In this document: positions 1-34,154 of the stretch, piece by piece
How positions within the stretch are numbered: the first letter of the stretch is position 1
Layout: every line of letters begins with the position of its first letter
Origin: a virus
DNA length: 36,413 bases
Strand: one strand, 5' to 3'
Virus record (IMG/VR): IMGVR_UViG_3300010327_000704
Location: 1-36,413 of that record
Position numbers and translations under genes: made by a program
The notes under the pieces: generated by a model
What the model was told of the DNA's origin: nothing
The model's database searches: none
What the model saw: only the letters and a program-made list of their open reading frames with translations

Positions 1-2
1 GG

Positions 3-1526
3 ACGGGAGACCATACTTCGGTTGCGGGGCCCCCAAAGCACCTTGAAACCCTTATGAACCATGCAGGGGAGATAATGCTAGCAGCCCAACAAAACATGTC
101 CGGCGGCCAGGCAATGAGCCTCTGGAATGTTTTCGTCGCACCATTCGCCGCGGGGCGGTCGTATGATGAGATTAAACAGGCTGTGCAAATGTTCATATTC
201 AACCTTAACATGGCATACGCTGCTAGGGGGAGCCAAGTCCCATTCACAAGCATAAACTTGGAATTCGCAGTACCAGATTTCCTATCTGATGTGCTGGCTT
301 ACGGGCCCCGGGGCGAACGCGTGGGAGTATATGGGGACTTCTATGATGAGGCCAGGCAAGTTACAAGGGCATTTACAGAAGTGCTCCTGGAGGGTGACGC
401 TGATGGCAAACCCCATTTATTCCCAAATACAATATATGTCATCCGCAAAGAAACCCTAAAGGGCGAATTCGATGATGACCTGCACCTTGCACATGAATTA
501 GCCGCCAAATACGGGACAGCATATTTCGTTAACATGTTAGCAGATTACAGGGGTGAAATGTCCAATTATATGGGTTGCCGAACACTTCTCTCAGATAATT
601 GGACGGGGAACTGGGAACAAGACTGTCTTAGAACAGGGAACCTAGCATATGTAACGTTAAATCTTCCAAGGATCGCATACCAGGCAAAGGATGACGATGA
701 GATATTCGAGTATATTGACGAATACCTTGACCTTGCAATTAACATACTAGAATTAAGAAGAGAACAAGCACTCAAATGCCTAAACGACTATAATCTATTA
801 CCATTCCTCACACAAGAAATCGAGGGCGAAAACTATTACAGGATAGAAAATGCAACCCTAAGTTTCGGATACGTTGGTCTGAACGAGATGCTAGAATACC
901 ACACTGGAGACGACATCACAAACCCGGATGCCAACAAATTCGGACTCAAGGTAATAAGATACTTGTACGAACGCGCCCAGGAACTCAAAAAGGAAACTGG
1001 CTTGCGCTGGAGCGTACTGCAAACACCCGCTGAGAGCACAGCTCACAGATTCGCGATGCTAGACAAAAAATCCTATAAGGAGGCTATAGTACAAGGAAGG
1101 GAAAACTCATACTATTACACGAACTCTAGTCACGTGCCAGTAGACGCTGAAATAGACATGATAGAAAAGATAAAAATAGAAGAGGAGTATCATCCAATAA
1201 CACCCGGAGGGCATATATTCCATGCATGGCTTGGGGAAGCCCAACCAGACACACAAGCACTCACAAGATTCACAAAAAACATCTGCAAAAACACAAAGAT
1301 AGGATTCTGGGATTACAGCAGCGCACTAAGTTTCTGCCTCAAATGCAAAACCCTCATGAGAGGATTGCAAGAAACCTGCGCCAACTGCGGCGAAAAAGAA
1401 GAAGTAGAATGGTACGATCGTATAACAGGATACGTCCAGCAGGTTGGAAGGGCTAAATCATCCAGTGGAGGCTGGAACCCGGGTAAAAGACAAGAATTAC
1501 TCGACAGAAAGCGCTACAACTTATAG
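3..1526 (+). CDS. nrdD: Anaerobic (class III) ribonucleoside-triphosphate reductase, 5'-truncated by the window; probably a host gene
   Basis: Frame is open back to the window edge (TGDHTSVAGPPKHLETLMNH...). Has finger-loop YMGCRT, LRTGNLAYVTLNLPRIA, QTPAESTAHRFA, YYTNSSHVP, zinc ribbon CLKC...CANC and glycyl-radical motif RITGY. Confidence 0.96.
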   Translation, partial: TGDHTSVAGPPKHLETLMNHAGEIMLAAQQNMSGGQAMSLWNVFVAPFAAGRSYDEIKQAVQMFIFNLNMAYAARGSQVPFTSINLEFAVPDFLSDVLAYGPRGERVGVYGDFYDEARQVTRAFTEVLLEGDADGKPHLFPNTIYVIRKETLKGEFDDDLHLAHELAAKYGTAYFVNMLADYRGEMSNYMGCRTLLSDNWTGNWEQDCLRTGNLAYVTLNLPRIAYQAKDDDEIFEYIDEYLDLAINILELRREQALKCLNDYNLLPFLTQEIEGENYYRIENATLSFGYVGLNEMLEYHTGDDITNPDANKFGLKVIRYLYERAQELKKETGLRWSVLQTPAESTAHRFAMLDKKSYKEAIVQGRENSYYYTNSSHVPVDAEIDMIEKIKIEEEYHPITPGGHIFHAWLGEAQPDTQALTRFTKNICKNTKIGFWDYSSALSFCLKCKTLMRGLQETCANCGEKEEVEWYDRITGYVQQVGRAKSSSGGWNPGKRQELLDRKRYNL

Positions 1527-1540
1527 TTTCCTACAAGGCC

Positions 1541-1609
1541 ATGATAATTATACAACCCATTGGAAATGTTGAGGAAGAAATACTTAAAAAAAAAGAAGGG
1601 AGGTGGTGA
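1541..1609 (+). pseudogene. Truncated N-terminus of a probable host archaemetzincin (AmzA/M54)-like gene, MIIIQPIGNVEEEILKKKEGRW*
   Basis: ATG 14 nt after the nrdD stop, with host-like A-rich codons. The first 17 aa resemble the archaemetzincin start as I recall it (M-x-I-x-I-Q-P-[IL]-G-x-V-x-x-E-[IV]-L). The reading runs into virus-like sequence at the A9 run and stops. Confidence 0.55.
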
Positions 1610-1612
1610 AAA

Positions 1613-1951
1613 ATGAAATGGATCGTAACAAGACATCACGACACAGTGAGATGGATACAAACAGCAACAAACGACAACAGCTACAAGCAGATCGAACATT
1701 TGAATCAGAAGATCGTGAACTTGATGCGGCCGGGGGATCGGGTATACGGCGTCCTGCCGATCCATCTGATCAGAGAGCTCCTCGACAGGGGGATCAAATA
1801 CTACCAGATCGTGCTTCCGAATATTCCGCCGGAGAAGCGAGGGAAGGAATTGAACCTATCAGAGCTCAGAGAAGCCGGAATACGGATCTACCACGTCAAA
1901 GGCCTCGAGATGGAGGAGGTCAGACTCGGGGGGAATCACGATGATGGCTGA
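1613..1951 (+). CDS. csx16: Csx16 (Cas_VVA1548)-like protein, putative cyclic-oligoadenylate ring nuclease
   Basis: Matches the Csx16 pattern: N-terminal IVTRH, PGDRVYGVLPIHL, YYQIVL, RGKELNLSELREAGIRI; 112 aa. Strong SD GGAGGTGGTG before ATG 1613. Confidence 0.8.
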   Translation: MKWIVTRHHDTVRWIQTATNDNSYKQIEHLNQKIVNLMRPGDRVYGVLPIHLIRELLDRGIKYYQIVLPNIPPEKRGKELNLSELREAGIRIYHVKGLEMEEVRLGGNHDDG

Positions 1952-2228
1952 CGCCGTCATCACCGACATCTCAGTGAAGACGAAAGGAGAAATCTTCAGA
2001 GATAAGCTCAAATATGGAGAGCCATTCGAGAGGGTTCTCCGCATCAGAATGGTCGTCTTCGATGGGCGAGGACGCCAGATAGGCTACGCTAGCGACATAC
2101 TACCACTCTCGTATTCCCCGCGGTCAAAATACGGGAAGATGCTACGCCATTACGGCGAACTGACCACGGGGATGACCGTAAAAGTCCAAAACGACAAGGG
2201 GTGGTGGAAACTATGGATCCCAAAGTAG
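1941..2228 (+). CDS. Hypothetical protein (95 aa, beta-rich)
   Basis: Overlaps the upstream stop, has a GGGGGA SD-like site and virus-like codon usage; part of a tightly packed operon. Confidence 0.75.
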   Translation: MMADAVITDISVKTKGEIFRDKLKYGEPFERVLRIRMVVFDGRGRQIGYASDILPLSYSPRSKYGKMLRHYGELTTGMTVKVQNDKGWWKLWIPK

Positions 2229-2569
2229 ACAGGCTCGGAGACGTCGAAATCAAGGTTCTCGACGTCGCGACACCCCAAATCTACAGTCTGCACTTCAAGG
2301 AGGACGGAGAACATTTCTACGTGCTCCTCGAAACCATAGGAGGAGGCAATGTCCTCCTCAGGCAGATCCTTGTCCTTCATTCTGGGGAACTGATTCTGCT
2401 CGACCGGACGCTCGACGACGACACGATCAGACACGTCAGAGAAAGAATCGCCGGATTCTCAGCCGGCAGACAAGTCAAAACTTGGAAGGACGTTCTTGTG
2501 GATGCTGTGTTCGATGACGTGCTCTTCCCAGACCCCCGAGCACGGAGAACATCAAGATTAGAAAAGTGA
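2213..2569 (+). CDS. Hypothetical protein (~118 aa)
   Basis: ORF track start is 2201 (GTG). ATG 2213 with upstream GGGGTGGTGG is the likelier start. Operon packing supports a real gene. Confidence 0.72.
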   Translation: MDPKVDRLGDVEIKVLDVATPQIYSLHFKEDGEHFYVLLETIGGGNVLLRQILVLHSGELILLDRTLDDDTIRHVRERIAGFSAGRQVKTWKDVLVDAVFDDVLFPDPRARRTSRLEK

Positions 2570-2585
2570 GGAGGTGAATAGGAAG

Positions 2586-2732
2586 ATGGAGAAGAAAGAA
2601 CTATACATGACGCTGCCAAGAGATCTCTATAGGGCAGTGTCCCGAAGCGCGAAGGCAAACGAGCGTACCGTGAGCCAGGAAATCCGATACGCGCTCCGAA
2701 AATACCTACGAGAAAGAGGTGAAAGGATATGA
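2586..2732 (+). CDS. Ribbon-helix-helix (CopG/Arc-like) transcription regulator, 48 aa; not in the ORF track
   Basis: Hand translation gives MEKKELYMTLPRDLYRAVSRSAKANERTVSQEIRYALRKYLRERGERI*, with beta-strand LYMTLP, helix, turn, then SQEIRYAL. SD GGAGGTGA upstream; ATGA overlap with the next gene. Confidence 0.85.
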   Translation: MEKKELYMTLPRDLYRAVSRSAKANERTVSQEIRYALRKYLRERGERI

Positions 2733-3625
2733 AGAACGAAAGCCAATTTATAGACCGCTTGAGCCTTGTCGCTCAGCGGTTCAAGGAAATGCCCGAGGAA
2801 ACAGTCCAGCTCCTCAAAAAAACAGTCGCACCCGGCGCAACCGACGAAGAACTCGCACTATTCCTCTACATGGCCAAACAATACGACCTCGACCCCCTCC
2901 TCGGGGAAATATACTTCGTGAAAATGCCAGACAAGAAAAGAACTGACACCAAACCCACATTCATCGTCTCCCGCGACGGATACCTCAAAATAGCCATGAG
3001 ACACCCAGAATTTCATGGTCTCAACTCCTTCACAGTCAGGGAAGGCGACGAGTTCGAGATCAACGCTGAGAGTGGGCGGGTCAAGCATCGGTTCGGTGCC
3101 AAGCGCGGAAGAATCCTCGGGGCATGGGCCATCGCCTACCGGAAAGGATACAGTCCATCCGTCGCGTTTGTCGACTTCAACGAATACGTGCGGAGGAATA
3201 GCCAGTCTTGGCAGCGTCACCCATCTGCGATGATTCAGAAAGTCGCGGAGGTCTTCGTGCTGCGCCGACAGTTCAACCTCAGCGGTCTATATATCAAGGA
3301 AGAGTTTGACAGGCATGGAATCGAGGTGAAGGCCCCGGAGACGGAAAAAGCGAAGGCAACGATTGCCATAGCTCCAGAACAGGGAAGTCAGCCAATCACC
3401 CAGGTCGAAATTCAAACCCCTGAGAACAACATCAGAGAGTCAGAACCCGCCACCGAAAAGACTCCGAAGATCTACAAGGTGCTGATCAATGATATCAAGG
3501 AGTCAGGGAAAAGCATCACCAAGGGCAACATCATAGCGTTGGCCATGAAGAAGATGAAGGCCGGTGAGATCACCCCCGCCGAATTCAGAAAGCTCAAAGA
3601 ACACCTTGCCAAGGTATTCCCATGA
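2729..3625 (+). CDS. recT: RecT/Red-beta (Bet) family single-strand annealing protein
   Basis: ATDEELALFLYMAKQYDLDPLLGEIYFVK, IVSRDGYLKIA, GAWAIAYRKG, WQRHPSAMIQKVAE...LRRQF..SGLY..EE are the Bet/RecT core motifs. Confidence 0.9.
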   Translation: MKNESQFIDRLSLVAQRFKEMPEETVQLLKKTVAPGATDEELALFLYMAKQYDLDPLLGEIYFVKMPDKKRTDTKPTFIVSRDGYLKIAMRHPEFHGLNSFTVREGDEFEINAESGRVKHRFGAKRGRILGAWAIAYRKGYSPSVAFVDFNEYVRRNSQSWQRHPSAMIQKVAEVFVLRRQFNLSGLYIKEEFDRHGIEVKAPETEKAKATIAIAPEQGSQPITQVEIQTPENNIRESEPATEKTPKIYKVLINDIKESGKSITKGNIIALAMKKMKAGEITPAEFRKLKEHLAKVFP

Positions 3626-3682
3626 CTCTTCCTTCTTTCTTTTTCTTTTTTTTTTCTATTGGGGAAAAGGAACCCTTTTTTT
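3626..3682 (+). terminator. Oligo-T archaeal terminator region after recT
   Basis: Pyrimidine tract with T10 at 3646-3655, then a short AAAAGG-AAC-CCTTTT hairpin and a further T-run. Confidence 0.65.
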
Positions 3683-3710
3683 CTTCGAGAATGACGGAAG
3701 TTGATTCCAA

Positions 3711-6287
3711 ATGATGCCATTGCTCTTGAATGAAGCCCTCAATGACAAATTGAGGCGAAAACACGGCTTAAACATCGTTTTCACGAACAAGGAGAAGCGG
3801 CCGTTACTCAAGGGATGGAACGAGTTCATAGAAAAGCCCCAGACAGACCAAGACCTCAAGAAATCGTTCCGCAGCGGATCATCGGCGTACGGCTACGTCT
3901 GTGGATGGAATGATCTGATTTGCATCGATTTCGACAACCCACTACCCTATTTCTTGTGCCAAAAAGAATTTGGAGACCGTTTCGACACCTTCACAGTCGA
4001 AACCCCGAATAGGGGTTTCCATGTCTATTTTTTTTCATCAGAATCAAATCAGAAAAAGAATATCAACACGTATAAGGACAATCTGCACGTTGAGATCATC
4101 CTGCGGGGCAATTCGCTGTGCCACGGCCGCATAGAAACCCGACGTGGCCTCGAAGAATACATCATCAAGGTGGATAAGGACATCCGCCGTGATAACACGA
4201 TAATCATGGACGTTCTTTCGTTTCTCGAGGAGACGATAGCTAAGCTCGAGTTCTTGGAGTACGAATGTGTTAAGGCGGCTCTCCGGGGAAAACCAGAGCT
4301 CAGCCACGAAGCCCGGCTAATATTCGCCAACTTCCTCGTCCGAGAACTAAAACCATCAATCGCCAGATACTTTTTCAGAAATCAGAGCGACTACAACAAG
4401 AAAACGACAGTATATCAGCTGCGATCTACGCTCTCAAAAATAGAAAAGGGCGAACTGAATCCGCCGACATGCAAGACTATGCGCAGCGTATTCAATGTAG
4501 ACGCCTCGATCTGCGAGAATTGCATACGACACGAACAGGACAAGGCCATACCAGAGAAGAAAGAGAAGCTGAGGACGATCTCAGTCGACGATCTCCTTGA
4601 GAATGTTGGATTGGCCCGGCCGAAGATCCAGACAGGCCAACACTGGGACGAGGCCGAGAAGAAACTCTATTATAGCTGGTACGACCCAAAGAAAGACGCT
4701 TTCCTCGTTCTGGGAGAGGACGGGCTTGGGGTCGGGATACACGACGACGACATCAAAGATTGGAAGAAAATGCCAGAGAACGTCCACCGAATGGAAGGAG
4801 CCAAAATTAAACCCCCAAAACGCGTCGAAGATGTTGTTCTCGGCTGCCTTGTGAAATGGGCCCATGAAGGCTTCCCAGCCGGAAAAAAGCTCACGCTCAG
4901 CAACCTATACGACCGAATCTACCAAGCCCTCAAAAAATACATCTATTTTCGATACGAAACAGAATATTCGCTTGTTTCAGCATGGATAATAGGCACATAC
5001 ATGCGCCAGGCCTTCATATGGTACCCATACCTCGTCTTTTTTGGTCTGAGGAATGTTGGAAAGTCCACAGCGATCACGGTACTCTCTCGGCTCTGCTTCC
5101 AGGGTGCGGGGGACAGCACGGGCGACAGAAGTGAAGCAGTGATATTCAGAAAGGCGTCCGGACTCAAAGGGCTCATGACAGTCGACCATTTCGAAGAAAT
5201 AATCAACAATCCCGTGAAAAACATCACATACCATCAGTTTCTCGAAAACGCCTGGTATCGGGACAACACAGTCGAAAGAATGAACGACAACTTCGACGTA
5301 GACTCATTCACGGCCAGTGTGAGCGTAGCGGTCTCAACAAGAGAGGAGAATGACGTTCTCGGAGAAAAGGGGATCGTGGTGATCATGGAGGAGGCACCTC
5401 GAAACAGCTCATATGCCGACAACTACCGAAAAATTCTCTCTGACCCCGAATTCGATGAAATCACCCGGCTAGCCCACCTCGTAGCCCTCAAATACGCCAA
5501 GGACGTCCACAACACTTATATCAACCTCAGCCAAGGCGACGGTTGGAAAATACAAGGCAGAGACTGGAACAAGATATCCCCGCTTCTGTCCATTGTCGCG
5601 GTCATCGATCAGGAAAAAGGAGAAGATTCCAAACTATTCGAAGAACTCTACGAGTACGCCGAAGAATATTCGAGAAGGAGAAAGGACGAAACCAGTGATA
5701 TCGAGGACTTGGCGCTCCAGTACATCATCGAAGAAGGCTATGACAGATACACGCTCAAGGAACTGCAAGAACACATCAAGGAGGAAATCGACCCATACAT
5801 AACGCCCCAAAAGGTCGGGCAGATCATGAAAAAACTCCTCATCACAAAACGAAAGTCGAAAAGAGGTGGTGAGACAATCTACTACATAGATCGGAAGCTC
5901 GCGACCAAAAAAGCCCTCGAGAGGGGCATACCACTCGCAAGCGACCACATATACACCCACGAAACCCAAGAAACAGAAGAAACCACTAAAAAAACCGAAG
6001 ATGGGGCCACAAGGCCTGAGGACGGTGAAGGGACGGTGGAATTCACCGACATCGAAGAGAAAGCCCTTAGGATCGTCTACGCCGAGATGGACAACCCCAA
6101 CCAAGCATGCGGATACCAAACGCTGCTATCCGGGCTGGCAGCACATGACGTCATCTTGGACGAAGCCCAGCTCGCAATAGAGCGTCTCAAAGCCCGAGGT
6201 TACCTCCGGGAGGAGGTAATAGGTCATATTCACATCCCAGAAGAAAAAATAGCCAAACTAATCGACATGGGGGTGATCAAGATATGA
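3711..6287 (+). CDS. Replication protein: AEP primase-polymerase + PriL-like Fe-S domain + P-loop helicase-like domain
   Basis: AEP motifs LICIDFD and ETPNRGFHVYF. Four-Cys region ECV...PPTC...ICENC. Walker A GLRNVGKST and Walker B-like MTVDHFEE. Probable winged-helix segments at the C-terminus. Confidence 0.82.
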   Translation: MMPLLLNEALNDKLRRKHGLNIVFTNKEKRPLLKGWNEFIEKPQTDQDLKKSFRSGSSAYGYVCGWNDLICIDFDNPLPYFLCQKEFGDRFDTFTVETPNRGFHVYFFSSESNQKKNINTYKDNLHVEIILRGNSLCHGRIETRRGLEEYIIKVDKDIRRDNTIIMDVLSFLEETIAKLEFLEYECVKAALRGKPELSHEARLIFANFLVRELKPSIARYFFRNQSDYNKKTTVYQLRSTLSKIEKGELNPPTCKTMRSVFNVDASICENCIRHEQDKAIPEKKEKLRTISVDDLLENVGLARPKIQTGQHWDEAEKKLYYSWYDPKKDAFLVLGEDGLGVGIHDDDIKDWKKMPENVHRMEGAKIKPPKRVEDVVLGCLVKWAHEGFPAGKKLTLSNLYDRIYQALKKYIYFRYETEYSLVSAWIIGTYMRQAFIWYPYLVFFGLRNVGKSTAITVLSRLCFQGAGDSTGDRSEAVIFRKASGLKGLMTVDHFEEIINNPVKNITYHQFLENAWYRDNTVERMNDNFDVDSFTASVSVAVSTREENDVLGEKGIVVIMEEAPRNSSYADNYRKILSDPEFDEITRLAHLVALKYAKDVHNTYINLSQGDGWKIQGRDWNKISPLLSIVAVIDQEKGEDSKLFEELYEYAEEYSRRRKDETSDIEDLALQYIIEEGYDRYTLKELQEHIKEEIDPYITPQKVGQIMKKLLITKRKSKRGGETIYYIDRKLATKKALERGIPLASDHIYTHETQETEETTKKTEDGATRPEDGEGTVEFTDIEEKALRIVYAEMDNPNQACGYQTLLSGLAAHDVILDEAQLAIERLKARGYLREEVIGHIHIPEEKIAKLIDMGVIKI

Positions 6288-6751
6288 GTTCGCGCCGAAC
6301 CTACACACTCAGGCGTTGCAGCCGATGTGGGGAGAGCCGCAGCATGCGAGAACTCGAAAACGGCTCATGGGTCTGCTACCGTTGTCTCAGAGGCGATGAC
6401 ATGGTTCTATGCGAGCTATGCGGCGAATACAAACCATACCAAGACTATCCGAGGAAGGGCCGTTGGCGGTTACGCTATTGCCAGACGTGCAAGGACACAT
6501 CGTACGAGATCAGGAAGACGTGGGGCGTGGAACTCACCACACTCGCCAGAAAAAAGCTACTCCAAAAAGAAGTCAGATCAGACAATGGGAGAATTATATT
6601 GTCTCTCGATAAGGCGGTGCAGTTGGCGATGAAAGGCCACGTACACCCGAAACGATTAAAACCCGACGAGCAGCACCTTTTTCTGATAATATGCTCCGGG
6701 GACTGGCAAATCCTCGAAAGGAGCCCACAAGGTGGCCAAGATGAAAAATAA
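6284..6751 (+). CDS. Multi-CxxC zinc-finger protein
   Basis: CSRC, CYRC, CELC, CQTC; ATGA overlap with the primase stop. Confidence 0.75.
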   Translation: MSSRRTYTLRRCSRCGESRSMRELENGSWVCYRCLRGDDMVLCELCGEYKPYQDYPRKGRWRLRYCQTCKDTSYEIRKTWGVELTTLARKKLLQKEVRSDNGRIILSLDKAVQLAMKGHVHPKRLKPDEQHLFLIICSGDWQILERSPQGGQDEK

Positions 6752-6914
6752 CGGCACGATCAGCATAAAAGTCAACAAAACAGCCATGGAACAATACCTC
6801 GAGCAGATGGAGCTCGTGAGACTTTCATTAACCAGGAAACGAGAATACGAGGCGGCCATAATCCTAGATGACTTCCTCGAACTCCTAAAATGCAAAATGA
6901 AGAAAAAGAGCTGA
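6741..6914 (+). CDS. Small hypothetical protein (57-60 aa)
   Basis: Track start is 6732 (GTG); ATG 6741 has AAGGTGG upstream. Last gene of the rightward arm. Confidence 0.6.
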   Translation: MKNNGTISIKVNKTAMEQYLEQMELVRLSLTRKREYEAAIILDDFLELLKCKMKKKS

Positions 6915-7134
6915 TAAAATGTAAAAAAAAAGAAGAACATAGGAGGCCCTAAGTCCACCCCGCAAAGGTCAAGATAACGCCTGAAAGATCCAAAAAAAAA
7001 AAGTTTTATACTGATTCCCTTTTCTCTCTCTTTTTTTTCATGTGCAGAGCATGTAATGGAACGTGATACAATATTCACCGCCTATGATCCGATACGACCG
7101 CCTATAATGATAAGCCATGCCGTTATATGCCCCT
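6915..7134. terminator. Convergent terminator/intergenic region between the early and late arms
   Basis: A9 (6923-6931) and A11 (6992-7002) act as T-runs for the minus-strand operon; T8 (7031-7038) serves the plus strand. Confidence 0.6.
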
Positions 7135-7434
7135 TTAGGGAGCCAAAGCCGGCGGATCCCCATCACCCCACCTCTCATAACTCCTTTTGAAAATTCGCAG
7201 AATCAACGGCAAGTACATGTAGTCATCATCATGAATTTGAATCTGAAGATGCTCCTCATCCGACGAGAAGTGGACCTGAGCCCCAACCAGGATCGCTGCA
7301 AAGTTAAGGATATCACAAATCTCTTGATTTGTTCGGAACACCCACGGCTTGCTCCGTATGAACCATCGGAGCATTCTTTCGAAGTATTGGACTGTGGCTT
7401 CGCCTTCTAGGTCGATGATCATCGCCATCTCCAT
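7135..7434 (-). CDS. Hypothetical protein (99 aa), last gene of the late operon
   Basis: AGGAGG SD upstream of ATG 7434; same orientation as the late operon. Confidence 0.7.
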   Translation of the reverse strand: MEMAMIIDLEGEATVQYFERMLRWFIRSKPWVFRTNQEICDILNFAAILVGAQVHFSSDEEHLQIQIHDDDYMYLPLILRIFKRSYERWGDGDPPALAP

Positions 7435-7488
7435 ACACTCTATCCTCCTGATTATAGTCTGTTTTTTTGGAATTCTGCTAAGGGGAGG

Positions 7489-8370
7489 CTAATCTTCGAA
7501 GTCAATCTCTGAAAACAGTGGGATATGCACAATACTCCAGAAATCCGACGCAAGATTTAGATCGAGATACCTATAGCTGAGATAACCATACCCGCCGTCC
7601 CCCCAATCCTCACCCCAACTATTCCGGATCACCAAGGCTTCTTTCCGGTCGTCGTAGCCCACAGCGAGCACTGCATGGCCGCCCGCAAGCACGTCGTCAG
7701 CCCCGGGCGGCTCGATAAAACCATTGTCAGCCGCTTGCTCAATAGCCTTCCGATAGACGAGGAAACCGAAGAGGATTGGTTGCCCGGCGGCCAGATGCTT
7801 CTTCAAGTCACCAAGCACCTTTCCTTGCTTTCTATATTGTTCTTCGTAGTTGTACCATGAATCTATCGAGAATTCATCGGCCAATCCGTAAACGTAGACG
7901 TCATAATCTCTGTCGAAGCGGTTGGGGTTGTATTCTGTCCCGAATTTGGGATCTTCCTCTGGGGCTCCGAAACGGTGCAGAGCCCGCATAGTATCCTTTA
8001 TCGATGATCCAACATCACCCTGGGGTGTTCCCATGAGAATGCGGCTATGTTTGTATATGAATAGCCGTGATGGCGTTCGAGACCATGAGGATCCGGTGTT
8101 CTGCTCGTACCATCGCCGCTGGTAGTATTCGAGGGCTGCTGCGGCCGTCTGAGCCGTGCAAGAACCAATATGTCCCTGATCATACACCGGCGGAAAATGT
8201 TCTCTGAGATCTACACGATCCGGCAATGTAGATGTGTCCTCTGGGACTTCTGTGTCCGTAGCATCGAAAAGAAAGCATCTGACGCTTTCTAGGGCCGTCT
8301 CATGCTTCTTGTATTTGGAGGGGATCCATCCTCTCAGGGAATAGGTTCGTCCTGCGTGTCGAATTTCCAC
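7489..8370 (-). CDS. Papain-family (C1A) cysteine peptidase, candidate endolysin
   Basis: DQGHIGSCTA (oxyanion Gln + catalytic Cys), GGHAVLAVGY (His), IRNSWGEDWGDGGYGY (Asn); prokaryotic xylellain-like layout; no signal peptide visible. Confidence 0.93.
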   Translation of the reverse strand: MEIRHAGRTYSLRGWIPSKYKKHETALESVRCFLFDATDTEVPEDTSTLPDRVDLREHFPPVYDQGHIGSCTAQTAAAALEYYQRRWYEQNTGSSWSRTPSRLFIYKHSRILMGTPQGDVGSSIKDTMRALHRFGAPEEDPKFGTEYNPNRFDRDYDVYVYGLADEFSIDSWYNYEEQYRKQGKVLGDLKKHLAAGQPILFGFLVYRKAIEQAADNGFIEPPGADDVLAGGHAVLAVGYDDRKEALVIRNSWGEDWGDGGYGYLSYRYLDLNLASDFWSIVHIPLFSEIDFED

Positions 8371-8448
8371 TCTCAGACACCCCTTCCCTCGGACCCTTTT
8401 TTTTTGCTATAAGCTTCTAGTGTGAGCCGTTTCACCATCTGGCGTATC

Positions 8449-8805
8449 CTATTGGATATAGTGGTTGTGGCCTTTTTCTTTGCGTTTGTTCCGCGCTCCG
8501 GGAAAGCAATTGAGCAGAAGGCGGAGCTGGGCGGCGTATGGTCGCAGTATTCTCTCATTCTCGAATAGTTTGTCCCCGACGTAGAAAGACCACGCCTTCA
8601 AGACCTCCAAACAGAAATAAAACTCCTGTAATTCTCTCGGGAGATCATTGGCGATATATATGCAAGTGTCATGGGGATCCCAGTATGCATATCGCCGTTC
8701 CCAGCCTTTCACGCCCAGACTCTTCAGGGCTTCCCGGAGGCGTTCGCTGTCCTCCATCTTCACATCGTAGATTATCCCTGCGATGTTCACCCGATCGGGG
8801 ATCAT
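8449..8805 (-). CDS. Phage metallopeptidase-like protein with a degenerate HExxH motif
   Basis: IPDRVNIAGIIYDV...IYIANDLPRELQEFYFCLEVLKA follows the small phage zincin pattern, but LEVLK replaces HExxH. Confidence 0.5.
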   Translation of the reverse strand: MIPDRVNIAGIIYDVKMEDSERLREALKSLGVKGWERRYAYWDPHDTCIYIANDLPRELQEFYFCLEVLKAWSFYVGDKLFENERILRPYAAQLRLLLNCFPGARNKRKEKGHNHYIQ

Positions 8806-9191
8806 TCTCTTCGCCTCTTCGCTCCCCGGAGCATCTGAGCCAGCCTATCCTGGAGTTCGGCGGTAATATGCTCTGTTATCGTGTCCTCGAGATCCTTGAT
8901 GATCCTTTCGTTAGATCGGCGAAGAGCATTATTTATAATGTCGACTTCTTCGCGTTTGGCCCGTACTTTGTGTTTGTCGCCGAGATAATTGACCGTGAAG
9001 CCGAGCGCAACCGCCAGAACGCCCGAAATCAAGAACTCGAACCTCGTAGGGCTGGATGTCAGACCGTTCTGGACGAGGATCAGGCCCGCGGCGATCAGAG
9101 CACTCGATGTGCTCGTCTTGGCCAGATTCGTTTTCAGAACCGTTCGAGTGTAATGTGTGATTATAAGGCGTTTGGTTTTTTCATCAATCAT
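8802..9191 (-). CDS. Holin-like two-TM membrane protein
   Basis: Hydrophobic segments SALIAAGLILVQNGL and FLISGVLAVALGFTVNYLG, followed by a charged coiled-coil with a basic end; sits after the tail genes and before the peptidase. Confidence 0.6.
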   Translation of the reverse strand: MIDEKTKRLIITHYTRTVLKTNLAKTSTSSALIAAGLILVQNGLTSSPTRFEFLISGVLAVALGFTVNYLGDKHKVRAKREEVDIINNALRRSNERIIKDLEDTITEHITAELQDRLAQMLRGAKRRRE

Positions 9192-29409: not shown

Positions 29410-30030
29410 TTATCTTTTGATCTTTCTTCCGAATTTGTCTCGGCCCAGTCGGCTATAGAAGTCGTCTGGTTTGGGCTTTTTGGAGGATTCCTTCAGTTTC
29501 TTGGTTGTTTCGCCGCCAAACTTCTCCTCAACCTTTTCGAGGCGTTTGGCGAATTCTTCGATCTGTTCTCTGATTGTTTCGGTGGCTTCTTTTGTGACCT
29601 TGTCTGAGACGATCTCAGCGAGCTTCTTGAATGTGTCCGCGTCTTCGTGTCCCTTTTTGACTTTCTGCGTGTCTTCTTCCTTCTCTTCTTCGTCCTTTGG
29701 CTTCTCGTTGGCTTTCTCGGGCTCTGGGACAGGATATCTCTCCTCCTGAGCCCTGAGATATTCTATGATTTGGCGGGCTGCATCGCGAACCTCGGAGGGG
29801 AGGTTTTCATCGTCGACGATCGCTTGCAGCTGCTCAACGACTTTGGCGATGGCATTCTCCTTCTTCTCTGTCTCAGAAGGTGGTGCGTAGGAGTATCCCA
29901 TTACAGCGGCTTCAACGGCCGCTATGGCCTTGTCGATGGCTTGGCGGGCTGCGACGAGCAGATCGAGAACGTCCTCGGATCCGCCAGTCTCTTCGGCCTC
30001 CTCCTTCTCTTCTTTGATGTTTTTTGTCAT
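29410..30030 (-). CDS. Probable nested scaffold protein (206 aa) from an internal in-frame start
   Basis: GAGGTGA lies 5 nt before in-frame ATG 30030 (MTKNIKEE...), right after the protease domain. Confidence 0.55.
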   Translation of the reverse strand: MTKNIKEEKEEAEETGGSEDVLDLLVAARQAIDKAIAAVEAAVMGYSYAPPSETEKKENAIAKVVEQLQAIVDDENLPSEVRDAARQIIEYLRAQEERYPVPEPEKANEKPKDEEEKEEDTQKVKKGHEDADTFKKLAEIVSDKVTKEATETIREQIEEFAKRLEKVEEKFGGETTKKLKESSKKPKPDDFYSRLGRDKFGRKIKR

Positions 30031-33000
30031 GGGGTTCACCTCTTCGTCCATTTTGAGAATTACCCACCGTGCGTCTGGCACGGCAGGATTGGAAACGAGA
30101 CTGACCTCGAAAACCTCAAGATCTCTGAGTTCTTGGGGTTCTTGGTCTTGGGGCTCGTCATCGGCCGTCTTCATCCGATCAGGAGCTTGTGGGCAACTTT
30201 TGCATATTCCTCCGATTGAAACGCCTCTGATCTCTCCTTTTTTGATCATACGCCACAGTTCCGGGTTATGTATCTTGAAGCCGATCATCCACGTCCCCGG
30301 CGGCAACTCATCACCATCCGCGAGCTCGTAGGGCTGTCTGAGAATGTAGGATTCTACGATTGTGACGTCGCTGCGGGGAAGTGGTGCTTCGTGCATGAAA
30401 TGGACGCTCTGGTAGTTTGCCATGAAATTATGGGCTGTACGCTCGATTTCCTCGGCAGAGATAACGTCGCCGTGCTTATCCACGCGGTTAGGTACGAGGG
30501 CGGGGGCCAGGGCGAAACGCTCTTCATCATCGATTTTCACGATTCTAGCGTAGATCTCGGCTCGCTTCTCCTTGCCCTGCTCTTCGTCTTTTGGTTTCCA
30601 TTCGGTTACGTCGATTAGCTTGGGTTTCTCGCCGGGTTTGGCCCATACAAGCCATTTCTGTCCTTTCTGCTTCAATTCCTTGACAACGTCTTCTAGCCTG
30701 TTCTTTTCGGCGTAGGGCGTCTGATCTTCGGGCTTTTCAAGGAGCCAGATCCTACGGCCTGCCACTGGAGCGTATTCGATCAGATAACGCCCCGTCAGTT
30801 TTTCGCCGTGTAGGAAGATTTCGAAGAAATGCTCTCTCCAGACGCCGATTTCGTAGGTTCCAGAGTCTATCAGGAAGAATTTGCTCCATTTATGGGTTGT
30901 GGAGCCAACATCCCGCGGTGGGACGACTAATGGCTCGTCTTTTCCAACCTCGAGCCATTCCTTGGGTTGTGGGAGTTTGAACGCGCCTTGGAGTTTTCTA
31001 TTTCCGAGGTTGTAGAGTAGGCTGCCTCCCGCCTCTCTATTCTCCTTTGTATCGCCGAGAAAAGCCGTGAAACCCCATAAGTGGTCGTCCACCGAGAATC
31101 TGAGATCGGCATGCAAGCTATGATCAGTTTCAAGGAGCTCCTCATTCGATTTCTTGGTATCCTCTTCCGAGAGGCCTCTCCAGTGATGCTGAACGACGAA
31201 CTGGCCTTTCCCGGAGGGTGGGAACTCCTTGTACCAGTTTTCAGCCCAATACTCTGCCGCGGCCTCGCTTCTCGTGTCAATCTCTTCGCCGTCGTCTTCT
31301 TTGATCAGCTCCTCGATTCCCAATGGGCCGTGGAGAGCGTAGATCATCTTGAGCTCTTGGCTCATGTCTTCGAGGTCGCCTGGGGTTTGTTCGTAGAGAC
31401 TGGTGTATAGGGCTTTGTAGATTTTCATTTCCTTGGTTGTGGGCTCGTATTCTTTGAGGAAGTTGTATTTGGTCTTGTTTTTTGTCCAGTCGGAGTGGAG
31501 GAGGGTCTGTATGAGGTCATCGTCTACTATGGGGTCTTGTTTCTTGGTCTCGGCTGGTATTCTGGTGTCGTTGAGTATGCCAGCCCTTCTCGCGAGGTCG
31601 ACAGCCTGTCCAGCAGTGTATGGTTCTTTTCTTTCTTTGTCGATGTCTATTGGGACGGCGGCTGTCCAGCTCAGCTCATCCCCGTCCTTAGTTTGGCGGA
31701 TCATGATCTCCTGAGGCTGTACTGTGATGATGTCGCCGGGTTTGGCCTTGAACGGCGCGTTCATCGTATATTTCATATTCACGTACGTTTTGCCTCGGAA
31801 TTCGACGACATTCGCGAATGGGAGTTCACCTGGTAGGAGGCCGCAGTCGAAGGAGTACGTTCCGTTCTTGTTTTTCCGAGCCTCCAGTACGATGGCTTTC
31901 AGTTCGGCTACTTTCTTGATCTTGGCGGTGGAATCGTTTGGGCCCTCGTGGTAGGGTGCTGTTTCATCCTTGAGGACGATACCCTCGCTGAGCTGGTAAT
32001 TGCCAAGCTCTTGGAAGGCCTTAGCAAGATCTTCGAGGCTTCGGATTTTCATTTGGTGTGAGATGTCGAAATGTTTGCTGTTTTTGAGGTGTTGGTCGTG
32101 GAATCGTTCGAGGATTTGTCTGCGTTCGCGTAGCGGCTTCTTTCTGAGATCGCCGCCGGCTCTGTCCCAGTACAGGATGTCGAAGGCTGTGAAGACTGGA
32201 TAGACGTCCTTGGGGAGCTCTGGGTTGTCGGCTGTGAGGGACATGACGTTCAGGCGGGGTAGTCGTTCGTCGCCTCTGTATAGGCCTACGTCGCCGTCGA
32301 GGATGAAATCGGCGCCGATCTGTTGAATGGCCTTGATGAGTTCGGGTATCTGATCTTTCCGTTCTTTCTGAGCGTCCTCGAAGAAGATGCTCACCTTGTC
32401 GCCTTTCTTTTGGATGATGGCTCTGAATCCGTTGAGCTTGTTCTCTGCCACAGCCTCAGGATGCTTTTCAAGCCATGTTATGAGCTCTTCGGGTTTGAAG
32501 GCCTCGGTCCCGGCGTAGTAGAATCCCATTCTGGGTTTGGATGGTGTGAAGTGCGTGATCGGTCCCCATTCCTTTCTTAGGATTGGGATTTTTTCTTTGG
32601 CTTTGGATGCGAGTTCGGATAGGTTATCGAGGGCCTTCCAGAAAGGGTTCACGATCTTCACGTCCCTTTTGTCACTCCTGACGAGCGCGAGGTCGTATAT
32701 GGGCACGTAATTGGTAAAGGCGCCCTGAGGATTGTTTATCAAGTGTATGGGCTTTTCTTTGTCTGGTGTGAGAGTGAGGCGGATTGGAACATAGACGCTT
32801 TCAAATTTAATCTGATAAGAGTCGCCTTTTAGGTCGGCCCTCACCAGAATGTCGATGTCGTCGTAATTTGGCCTTCGAACGGCCGACCCAACCAGATCCA
32901 CGAATTCTGGGACGAGTATGATCTTTTCGGGGAGTTCGTCGAGGTCAACCGGCAAATTCGAGGCGTCTTTGAGCTTTTTATCGAGTTCATCACGTATATG

Positions 33001-33192
33001 ATGTTGGAGGCTTCTTCGGGCCATCTCCGCGACTATCAGATGGTGAGCGTTGACCACATCCTCCAAATTGATGTTTTCGCCGCCTTGCTCCCTGATCTTG
33101 GGATACAGTTGGTGGCAGCGGCGGTGGAGATTGAGAAGCTCATCATCAGGGGCTCTTTTCAGGTTTTGGGGGTTTACCTCACGTATTTTCAT
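29410..33192 (-). CDS. Multidomain head protein: helical N-domain + Pol-beta-type NTase + ATP-dependent ligase + LigD-type 3'-phosphoesterase + XkdF/S78-like prohead protease + scaffold
   Basis: Numbered on the track's 1316-aa ORF. NTase: LVGS...DDIDIL (aa 156-172). Ligase: ENKLNGFR, FILDGD, FTAFDIL, PLRERRQIL, EGIVLKD, KIKK (aa 305-483). Phosphoesterase: FVVQHH...LHADLR...IDSGTYE...FLHGEKLTGRY (aa 721-859). Protease: LVPNRVDKHGDVI...HFMH...GTWMIGFK...IKKGEIRGVSIGG...EVSLVSNPA (aa 950-1095). Charged helical tail. Likely start is ATG 33192 with a GAGGGG SD. Confidence 0.85.
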   Translation of the reverse strand: MKIREVNPQNLKRAPDDELLNLHRRCHQLYPKIREQGGENINLEDVVNAHHLIVAEMARRSLQHHIRDELDKKLKDASNLPVDLDELPEKIILVPEFVDLVGSAVRRPNYDDIDILVRADLKGDSYQIKFESVYVPIRLTLTPDKEKPIHLINNPQGAFTNYVPIYDLALVRSDKRDVKIVNPFWKALDNLSELASKAKEKIPILRKEWGPITHFTPSKPRMGFYYAGTEAFKPEELITWLEKHPEAVAENKLNGFRAIIQKKGDKVSIFFEDAQKERKDQIPELIKAIQQIGADFILDGDVGLYRGDERLPRLNVMSLTADNPELPKDVYPVFTAFDILYWDRAGGDLRKKPLRERRQILERFHDQHLKNSKHFDISHQMKIRSLEDLAKAFQELGNYQLSEGIVLKDETAPYHEGPNDSTAKIKKVAELKAIVLEARKNKNGTYSFDCGLLPGELPFANVVEFRGKTYVNMKYTMNAPFKAKPGDIITVQPQEIMIRQTKDGDELSWTAAVPIDIDKERKEPYTAGQAVDLARRAGILNDTRIPAETKKQDPIVDDDLIQTLLHSDWTKNKTKYNFLKEYEPTTKEMKIYKALYTSLYEQTPGDLEDMSQELKMIYALHGPLGIEELIKEDDGEEIDTRSEAAAEYWAENWYKEFPPSGKGQFVVQHHWRGLSEEDTKKSNEELLETDHSLHADLRFSVDDHLWGFTAFLGDTKENREAGGSLLYNLGNRKLQGAFKLPQPKEWLEVGKDEPLVVPPRDVGSTTHKWSKFFLIDSGTYEIGVWREHFFEIFLHGEKLTGRYLIEYAPVAGRRIWLLEKPEDQTPYAEKNRLEDVVKELKQKGQKWLVWAKPGEKPKLIDVTEWKPKDEEQGKEKRAEIYARIVKIDDEERFALAPALVPNRVDKHGDVISAEEIERTAHNFMANYQSVHFMHEAPLPRSDVTIVESYILRQPYELADGDELPPGTWMIGFKIHNPELWRMIKKGEIRGVSIGGICKSCPQAPDRMKTADDEPQDQEPQELRDLEVFEVSLVSNPAVPDARWVILKMDEEVNPMTKNIKEEKEEAEETGGSEDVLDLLVAARQAIDKAIAAVEAAVMGYSYAPPSETEKKENAIAKVVEQLQAIVDDENLPSEVRDAARQIIEYLRAQEERYPVPEPEKANEKPKDEEEKEEDTQKVKKGHEDADTFKKLAEIVSDKVTKEATETIREQIEEFAKRLEKVEEKFGGETTKKLKESSKKPKPDDFYSRLGRDKFGRKIKR

Positions 33193-33218
33193 ATTATCCC
33201 CTCGGGGGAGGGTTGGGG

Positions 33219-34154
33219 TCATATTGGTGTGATTTGGAGCCAATCTGATCCTGGTGGGGCCACAGGAACCCAAGTGCATCGGCAATTCGGGTGCTGCGGG
33301 ATCAGATCCTTCACTTTTGGGTCTGCGACCCTTAGAACGGCCCCATCCCATTTTCGGCATCGTCTACAGACTTTTGAGTCCCGGGCAGTGAGATACATGA
33401 CTTCCTGGACCCCAGCCGCCGTGCACGCCTCCAGTTTGGCTAATTTCGAAGCCGCGGATAATTCTGTTCGGAGAACTCGGGAGAAGAGATACCGGGTGCT
33501 CTTGTACGCTGAGTCGACTGGATTGAAGAGTTTCATGATGTTGGCAGCTATTTCGTCTGCTGTTGCACGTGTGGCGAGACCGTCAGCGATAAAAGAAGCA
33601 GCCAGACCACCCAAGCGTTTTGGGAGCGTTTCGAGGGCTGGGGATGCCATTTCAGCTATTCGGACGTTTAGGGCGGCTAATTCGGGCTCTGGAAGCCTAA
33701 GGCCCGATGGTGTCAGATTCACGTATCTCAGAATCTTCTCGAGTGTTTTCTCGTAGGTGGCGGCGTACTGGGTTTGCATTCTTCGAAGGACGAGTTCTCT
33801 GGGCTCTCTGAGGTGGTATGCGAGTAGTGCGATGATCGCACTGATCAGGAGGATGTCGTCGGTGTCGAGGCCTTGTTCTTCGAGTTCTCGACGGATTTCC
33901 TCGTCGATGGCGTACTCTTGTTTGGCCACAGCCTTCTTGTCCCTCCATTCATGGATTAGACGACTGAGGTCGTTCTGTGCTCTGGCTATTGCTTTGTCGA
34001 AGGCTTGTAGGAGTCTGTCAGTCTCTTGGATGATCTCTGAGCGCGTGGCATGGTATTCTACAGTGGTGTGTTCGATTGGTTGGGATTTGAGGCCGTCCCT
34101 GAGAAGAGTGATTTTTCGGATGACGTCGTCGAGCTCGTGTATGATTCCCTTCAT
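33219..34154 (-). CDS. MuF/SPP1 gp7-like minor head protein
   Basis: RVLRTE..., YLTARDSKVCRRCRKWDG, IPQHPNCRCTWVP; follows the portal. Confidence 0.92.
   Translation of the reverse strand: MKGIIHELDDVIRKITLLRDGLKSQPIEHTTVEYHATRSEIIQETDRLLQAFDKAIARAQNDLSRLIHEWRDKKAVAKQEYAIDEEIRRELEEQGLDTDDILLISAIIALLAYHLREPRELVLRRMQTQYAATYEKTLEKILRYVNLTPSGLRLPEPELAALNVRIAEMASPALETLPKRLGGLAASFIADGLATRATADEIAANIMKLFNPVDSAYKSTRYLFSRVLRTELSAASKLAKLEACTAAGVQEVMYLTARDSKVCRRCRKWDGAVLRVADPKVKDLIPQHPNCRCTWVPVAPPGSDWLQITPI

Follow-up and report, generated by a model that had tools for sequence, protein, structure and literature searches.

The window analysed in the present work is the whole stretch of 36,413 nucleotides, which is an entire linear IMG/VR record with an estimated completeness of 45%. 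On the plus strand, from 1613 to about 7400, it holds a gene of the Csx16 family followed by two orphan genes, a gene for a ribbon-helix-helix protein, a gene for the recombinase RecT and a gene for an 858-amino-acid primase-polymerase-like protein (Table 1). On the minus strand, from 36411 down to 7489, lie terminase-side genes and genes for a portal, a MuF protein, a protease fusion, a baseplate J protein, a tail fibre and a papain-like protease. The portal shares 37% identity with its counterpart in Methanobacterium virus Drs3 and 34-36% with those in psiM100 and psiM2. In a single minus-strand ORF of 1316 amino acids (29410-33360), situated between the MuF and capsid genes, an ATP-dependent DNA ligase domain is joined to XkdF/S78 prohead protease domains. 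The late block ends with the gene for the papain-family (C1) cysteine protease (7489-8370), which shows no sequence relationship to the Pei-type lysins found in PhiF3 and in the related virus contig L032; no pseudomurein-binding repeats were found in the window. A Pfam scan of the 36 ORFs of the window detected no cas genes, a repeat search detected no CRISPR-like repeat within the window, and a search for the Cas10 palm domain detected none in the record, in agreement with the statement in the initial annotation that neither cas genes nor an array lie near the Csx16 gene.

Table 1. Features at the left end of the window, with the evidence on which each assignment is based.
Feature	Position	Strand	Evidence
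Host nrdD, 3' part (anaerobic ribonucleotide reductase), not viral	3..1526	+	Pfam NRDD E 2.3e-142; 100% identity to G516:C1
Decapitated amzA', 22-codon leader ORF (14 host and 8 viral codons)	1541..1609	+	Translation, alignment
Host-provirus junction, attL side	1582..1583	.	Contig divergence; continuation of amzA in L081 and G516
Shine-Dalgarno motif GGAGGTG, 7 nt 5' of the Csx16 ATG	1599..1605	+	Sequence reading
Csx16-family gene, 112 aa, provirus gene 1	1613..1951	+	PF09652, TIGR02620, conserved residues, AlphaFold2, predicted homodimer
Orphan gene, 95 aa, sharing 11 nt with the 3' end of Csx16	1941..2228	+	44% identity to syntenic L032 gene
Orphan gene, 122 aa	2201..2569	+	47% identity to syntenic L032 gene
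Ribbon-helix-helix protein (CopG/Arc-like), 52 aa	2574..2732	+	RHH_5 E 3e-6, RHH_1, PHROG Arc-like repressor; conserved in L032
RecT recombinase	2729..3625	+	PF03837 E 1.4e-39
Primase-polymerase/helicase-like replication protein, 858 aa, module end	3711..6287	+	Weak Prim-Pol match; 46% identity over 874 aa to L032

The plus-strand genes form a module which is conserved in the related virus contig L032. This contig carries the closest homologue of the window Csx16 (63% identity), followed in matching order by the two orphan genes, the ribbon-helix-helix gene, recT and the primase-polymerase gene; it differs in having two additional ORFs between Csx16 and the first orphan, its RecT and primase-polymerase proteins are 47% and 46% identical to those of the window, and its Csx16 gene lies downstream of a lysin gene with pseudomurein-binding repeats. 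Neither orphan has a family match in Pfam, NCBIfam or PHROGs. The ribbon-helix-helix protein is a possible regulator of the module. The synteny kept between viruses, the portal, MuF, protease and baseplate J genes and the host-provirus junction described below together establish that the Csx16 gene has a viral location, as had been claimed from the sequence at the outset.

The assignment of the gene to the Csx16 family, for which a profile search had been proposed as a check, can be made with two curated profiles. The protein matches PF09652 (Cas_VVA1548) of Pfam with an E-value of 2.9e-22 and a score of 79.1 bits (cut-off 25), aligning with positions 1-87 of the 91 in the profile, and it matches TIGR02620 (Csx16) of NCBIfam with 50.9 bits against a cut-off of 46.35; no family matching it was found in PHROGs. 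When 1.84 billion representative proteins were searched exhaustively with phmmer, 471 relatives were obtained at E<=0.001, the most similar of them at 63% identity. A word-indexed protein search and a single-protein viral scan returned the query alone, so that relatives had to be sought by the exhaustive search and by a scan based on an alignment. In an alignment of 97 stand-alone homologues there are fourteen near-invariant positions (R7, H8, W14, H29, G41, D42, G46, L48, P49, G60, R76, G77, E79 and L80), each conserved in 80-100% of the homologues, and the window protein carries all of them. The initial annotation had recognised the gene by its TRH, PGD.V.G.LP and RG.EL motifs and by a strong Shine-Dalgarno sequence, which is indeed present; because the window protein has every near-invariant residue, the motifs are to be regarded as the signature of the Csx16 family and not as the product of chance. 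Many of the relatives, among them P0004, P0007, P0012, P0016 and P0018, are either tandem duplications of about 205-228 amino acids with two matched stretches or fusions to proteins of 400-690 amino acids; they are possible single-chain pseudo-dimers and fusions to effectors.

An AlphaFold2 model of the monomer, computed from a 60-row alignment, has an alpha/beta Rossmann-like fold with a pLDDT of 95.1 and a pTM of 0.82; this alignment-based model was used in place of a single-sequence model, which was poor (pLDDT 66). A CARF-like enzyme that binds cA4 requires a symmetric dimer. When the dimer was predicted, as had been suggested, although with two AMP molecules as the ligand, a symmetric homodimer was obtained with a score of 0.77, compared to 0.00 for the best of three controls, and the dimer runs had a contact agreement of at least 79% and a partner pLDDT of at least 87. 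In a benchmark of the dimer score, 20 of 30 proteins solved as one-chain pairs attained this mark, as did 1 of 23 solved as single chains, counts which apply roughly to the Csx16 dimer, given its custom alignment and the AMP ligand riding along with it. The predicted interface is composed of the C-terminal strands 91-103 together with the conserved H29, P49-H51 and R76. These predictions support the view that the window Csx16 would be a symmetric dimer. A sequence search of the PDB with the window protein returned nothing meaningful, Foldseek found no match in the PDB at E<=0.001 (best E-value 0.064), and a wide structural search returned generic Rossmann-like matches alone.

What is known of the activity of the family comes from one cellular Csx16, which in vitro degraded cA4, and not cA6 or cA3, as a metal-independent ring nuclease (Hoikkala et al. 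2025, PMC12409355); the cA4 ring-nuclease activity which the initial annotation attributed to the family is therefore published for this one protein. The same study counted Csx16 in 68 type III loci and in 2 of 28,114 phage genomes, as against 36 phage genomes with AcrIII-1, and its main text defines no catalytic residues for Csx16. Makarova et al. 2020, as summarised in PMC8284326, predicted that Csx16 is a ring nuclease with partial similarity to DUF1874. Later work from the laboratory of Hoikkala et al. assigns viral ring nucleases an anti-CRISPR role (PMC13148439). Our literature search found no paper which tests a viral Csx16 or discusses Csx16 in connection with methanogen viruses, and in the searchable literature no activity or anti-CRISPR effect has been demonstrated for any viral Csx16.

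We hold with moderate confidence that the window Csx16 is a viral cA4 ring nuclease which acts against type III immunity. According to this proposal, a temperate tailed virus that infects a digester methanogen with a small genome would carry a stand-alone dimeric ring nuclease of the Csx16 type; by analogy with the one cellular Csx16 that has been assayed, the dimer would bind the cA4 produced by the Cas10 subunit of type III complexes and would cut it to linear products, so that CARF effectors such as Csx1 and Csm6 would stay off and the virus would escape type III immunity. The protein would thus work like AcrIII-1, but from another family. We infer the cleavage of cA4 by the window copy, the timing of its expression and its use against type III immunity.

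The position of the gene relative to host DNA can be fixed to the base. Contigs from two DNA runs follow the window up to 1582 and then diverge into unlike sequence. The metagenome contig L081 contains the corresponding empty site, in which nrdD is followed directly by an intact gene for the 171-amino-acid archaemetzincin AmzA (PF07998), and window positions 1541-1582 are the first 14 codons of this amzA gene. The nrdD-amzA order is seen in the empty-site contigs L081, L087 and L088, an intact 171-amino-acid AmzA is found in both L081 and L085, and the same empty site is present in the host genome G516 (one contig, 1.47 Mb), whose NrdD is 100% identical to that of the window over 490 amino acids. 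From the divergence of the contigs at 1582 and the empty sites in L081 and G516 it follows that window positions 1-1582 are host DNA and that the provirus begins at 1583, which makes Csx16 its first gene, as the initial annotation had it. The integration site is the 5' end of amzA, past codon 14 and immediately 3' of nrdD, and the remaining codons of amzA are to be expected at the right end of the provirus, which is missing. The interpretation of NrdD as a viral gene was ruled out, because the empty-site contig and G516 identify it as host DNA; the clues in its sequence are misleading, since the NrdD of PhiF1 is 43% identical while the cellular NrdD proteins in the order and the phylum of a Methanobacteriota MAG reach only 38% and 50% identity. 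The depths of the contigs served as a lead to the empty site, and not as a measure.

An NCBI MAG to which its submitter gave the label Methanothermobacter sp. encodes a protein 99% identical to the intact AmzA. The order of the Methanobacteriota MAG was rejected as a proxy for the host, since the portal matched one of 151 genomes, weakly, and AmzA matched none of the 151; seven Csm1 and four Cmr2 proteins scored above the cut-off in these genomes, and these Cas10 tallies say little about the host because the order is probably wrong. The host family is represented in the species collection by five genomes of about 1.5 Mb each, all of which encode McrA. When runs with under a fifth of the sampled words were left uncounted, the viral module was found in runs from four studies outside the possible source samples, which came from anaerobic digesters, a biogas fermenter and wastewater. 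In two metatranscriptomic libraries from one study, contigs bridge nrdD, the junction and Csx16 (window positions 928-2555 and 928-3958).

The arrangement at the junction raises the question of whether Csx16 serves the virus during lysogeny. The leader ORF ends with a TGA stop 3 nt 5' of the Csx16 ATG and in the same frame, and this ATG lies 31 nt inside the provirus; being situated so close to attL, behind the amzA start and the leader ORF, the gene could use host expression signals. Csx16 expressed in this way would quench cA4 in the lysogen, shielding the transcribed prophage from self-targeting by type III systems or damping toxicity, and would not be an early anti-CRISPR. In favour of such a role, the junction is seen in the sequence, as are the in-frame leader and the host start region that has been kept, and the bridging contigs from RNA libraries would also fit; such contigs, however, cannot reveal a transcript, its strand or its start, and RNA libraries may contain carried-over DNA. 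In L032, moreover, the Csx16 gene follows other viral genes and not a host junction, and Cas10, which would supply the signal to be quenched, was not found in the host reference G516. We consider a role confined to lysogeny distinctly unlikely.

Instead of turning over cA4, the dimer might act as a sponge which sequesters the signal, as was once proposed for Csx15 before slow activity was found in that protein. The idea has been discussed for small CARF-like proteins (PMC12409355, PMC13148439). Against it, the tested cellular Csx16 turned over a 100-fold excess of cA4 (PMC12409355), and polar Arg, His and Asp/Glu residues of the kind regarded as compatible with ring-nuclease chemistry (PMC8284326) are all kept in the window protein. 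Sequestration without turnover is in our judgement quite improbable, and cleavage of cA4 is the mode of action retained in the favoured proposal.

Whether the target would be a type III system depends on the CRISPR systems which the virus is likely to meet. The host species reference G516 carries a type I-B locus composed of cas6, a large unassigned gene, cas7, cas5, cas3, cas4, cas1, cas2 and 46 repeats. Searches of this genome for Cas10 with three profiles, for the Csm6 HEPN domain, for Csx16 and for the provirus itself all gave negative results. Cas10 is present in one of the five species of the host family, namely G513, which has a type III-A system with csm1-5, a Csm6 of CARF-6H-HEPN architecture, Cas6b and Csa1; in the remaining four species, G516 included, neither Cas10 nor Csm6 was detected. 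The supposition that type III systems are common in the host's group, which had been made when the gene was first described, is not supported, in view of the type I-B locus of G516, which is without Cas10, and the occurrence of type III-A in one of five family species. The arrays that can be linked to cas genes are of type I-B. Type III complexes often borrow type I-B crRNAs.

CRISPR pressure on these viruses is plain. A 113-repeat array of G515 (L106, G515:C1:1042000-1061900, at about 1534-9061) contains 19 spacers that match L032 and 18 that match its near-copy L033, and the 17 G515 spacers found in the first pass are nearly all perfect matches to L032/L033; G517 holds one matching spacer. 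These spacers tie the L032/L033 virus to the host family. In G515 itself, Cas1 is present and Cas10 is absent. In the biogas-fermenter run X7, contigs with the 31-nt repeat of the G516 type flank window sequence at 2946 and 3345, within recT, from which it seems that host-type arrays in that fermenter carry spacers derived from recT. No spacers matching the window were found in the reference arrays of G513, G515, G516 and G517; a 34-nt match to the window in G515 was discarded because it is not within an array.

The failure to find Cas10 or Csm6 in G516 and in three other species of the family is also what would be expected if the target were not type III at all, in which case Csx16 would degrade or bind some other cyclic nucleotide, belonging to another defence system, or would have a different role. 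This finding is counterbalanced by two considerations: the experimental and context data for the Csx16 family all point to type III and cA4, and CRISPR-Cas content differs between strains. We accord a target outside type III a small chance, and the relationships among the known copies, which bear on the favoured type III reading, are considered in the following paragraphs.

Among 50,697 GenBank phage records, relatives of the window protein were found only as ORF3 of Drs3 and ORF30 of PhiF3, both of which are annotated as Csx16/Cas_VVA1548. A pattern scan of IMG/VR added 28 further viral contigs with Csx16, ten of which are at least 90% complete and several of which have terminal repeats; the Cas10 palm domain was found in none of the 28, and the TRH, G.LP and RG.EL motifs are kept in the Csx16 proteins of all these contigs. 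In a maximum-likelihood tree of 53 rows, from which three false positives, three fragments and duplicate sequences had been excluded, the window Csx16 pairs with its syntenic relative (support 98/90). Together with PhiF3 and three IMG/VR contigs, this pair makes up an all-virus clade of six rows (support 100/95), and the all-virus clade, which has long internal branches, is sister to a group formed by Drs3 and two cellular copies from Methanobacteriota, the nine rows together having support of 97/90. Twenty-three other viral contigs form a clade of their own, apart from the proteobacterial cellular copies. The proteins of this second clade (within L007-L031) have a shortened middle segment, of the form VYGVLPLHLAA...V..VD, with intact TRH and RG.EL motifs, and the clade, which consists of uncultivated viruses, has no member from an isolated phage.

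One of the two cellular copies in the sister group (G108) lies in a type III-B operon, cas6-cmr1-cmr2-cmr3-cmr4-cmr5-cmr6-csx16. A gene for an HD-domain protein follows this operon, and there is a CRISPR array on either side. A gene for a group II intron reverse transcriptase/maturase (L080, 16970-18397) adjoins one of these arrays. The comparison of viral with CRISPR contexts which had been recommended for the family thus gives a viral context for Drs3, PhiF3 and the 28 IMG/VR contigs, and a type III-B operon for the G108 copy. Since viral and cellular copies are intermixed in the Methanobacteriota clade, Csx16 has been exchanged within this archaeal group; the tree gives no direction to the exchange, and the initial proposal that the virus co-opted a host off-switch enzyme goes further than the tree does. 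It is very improbable that the gene is a mere passenger from a host type III locus, of no present benefit to the virus, because while the intermixing of viral and cellular copies would accommodate such an origin, the gene is intact with every conserved residue kept, its position is held across viruses which are 63% identical in Csx16 and 44-47% identical in the neighbouring genes, and the all-virus clade has long internal branches.

The reading of the window Csx16 as a viral cA4 ring nuclease directed against type III immunity is supported by the family residues, the fold, the location of the gene in a virus and its place as the first gene of the module, the type III-B relative in G108, the presence of a type III-A system in G513 and the CRISPR pressure to which these viruses are exposed. 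Its weak point is that no type III system was found in the host reference G516. In addition, the Csm6 of G513 may not fit a cA4 target, because Csm6 is classed as an effector which is activated by cA6 and has no ring-nuclease association (Hoikkala et al., PMC12409355), whereas the tested Csx16 is specific for cA4. On this evidence the window Csx16 is probably an anti-CRISPR, and one of a kind that has been recognised before.

A more far-reaching interpretation would be that Csx16 is a second widespread family of viral ring-nuclease anti-CRISPRs, wired in the present virus to host signals in such a way that lysogens constitutively quench cA4. We regard this as unlikely; if it were true, lysogeny itself would suppress the immune signal, even where type III systems are patchy. 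If the window protein is simply active, it would add to AcrIII-1 another family of virus-encoded cA4 ring nucleases, unrelated to it, and would do so in viruses of methanogens, for which we know of almost no counter-defence genes. The natural system is well defined, in that the host species has been identified, the integration site has been mapped to the base and the virus recurs in digesters from several studies; in a sister host, many CRISPR spacers are directed against a sister virus, and the system allows both a biochemical and a genetic test. The picture of type III regulation is unchanged by these results; the family, its activity and its presence in phages have already been published.

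Comparison with the known ring nucleases sets the window protein apart from two groups. The first is AcrIII-1/Crn2 (DUF1874, for example SIRV1 gp29 and AFV3-109), which had correctly been named in the initial annotation as a different family: the window protein has no DUF1874 match at E<=1, its motifs differ, and PF09652 is the sole Pfam family that it matches. The second consists of the CARF-like ring nucleases Csx20 and Crn1, to which it has no sequence-profile match and for which the structural matches are non-significant. With Csx16 proper (PF09652/TIGR02620), on the other hand, it shares both profiles, the near-invariant residues, a stand-alone form of about 100 amino acids, and the predicted Rossmann-like fold and dimer. 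It differs from the Csx16 copies of type III loci in being located at the end of a provirus, in a record without cas genes or an array.

The nearest published parallels are Drs3 ORF3 (AXN53384.1) and PhiF3 ORF30 (QGZ14607.1), from isolated viruses of Methanobacteriales, which are likewise stand-alone proteins, of 103-104 amino acids, and are 38% and 44% identical to the window Csx16, respectively. The PhiF3 protein shares the all-virus clade with the window copy, whereas the Drs3 protein groups with cellular copies. Both viruses belong to another lineage, with portals that are 37% (Drs3) and 29% (PhiF3) identical to that of the window, and the window copy differs from theirs in adjoining the host junction of an integrated provirus. 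In both records, as in the provirus, Csx16 lies at an end or close to one: it is the last gene of the PhiF3 record (32187-32501 of 32524) and the third gene of the Drs3 record (1477-1788 of 37129), positions which relate to the ends of the linear records and not to established genome termini. Drs3 and PhiF3 are presumably the two phage genomes in which Hoikkala et al. counted Csx16. Since both genes were already annotated as Csx16, and since Hoikkala et al. 2025 report the family in two phage genomes and regard ring nucleases of viruses as anti-CRISPRs, the novelty implied by the initial annotation does not stand: the idea of a viral Csx16 is not new, and the family, its activity and its occurrence in phages are already in print. 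What is new here is the exact junction together with the host species, the leader ORF at attL, the conserved module headed by Csx16, the division of the viral copies into two clades, and the types of CRISPR system found in the host family.
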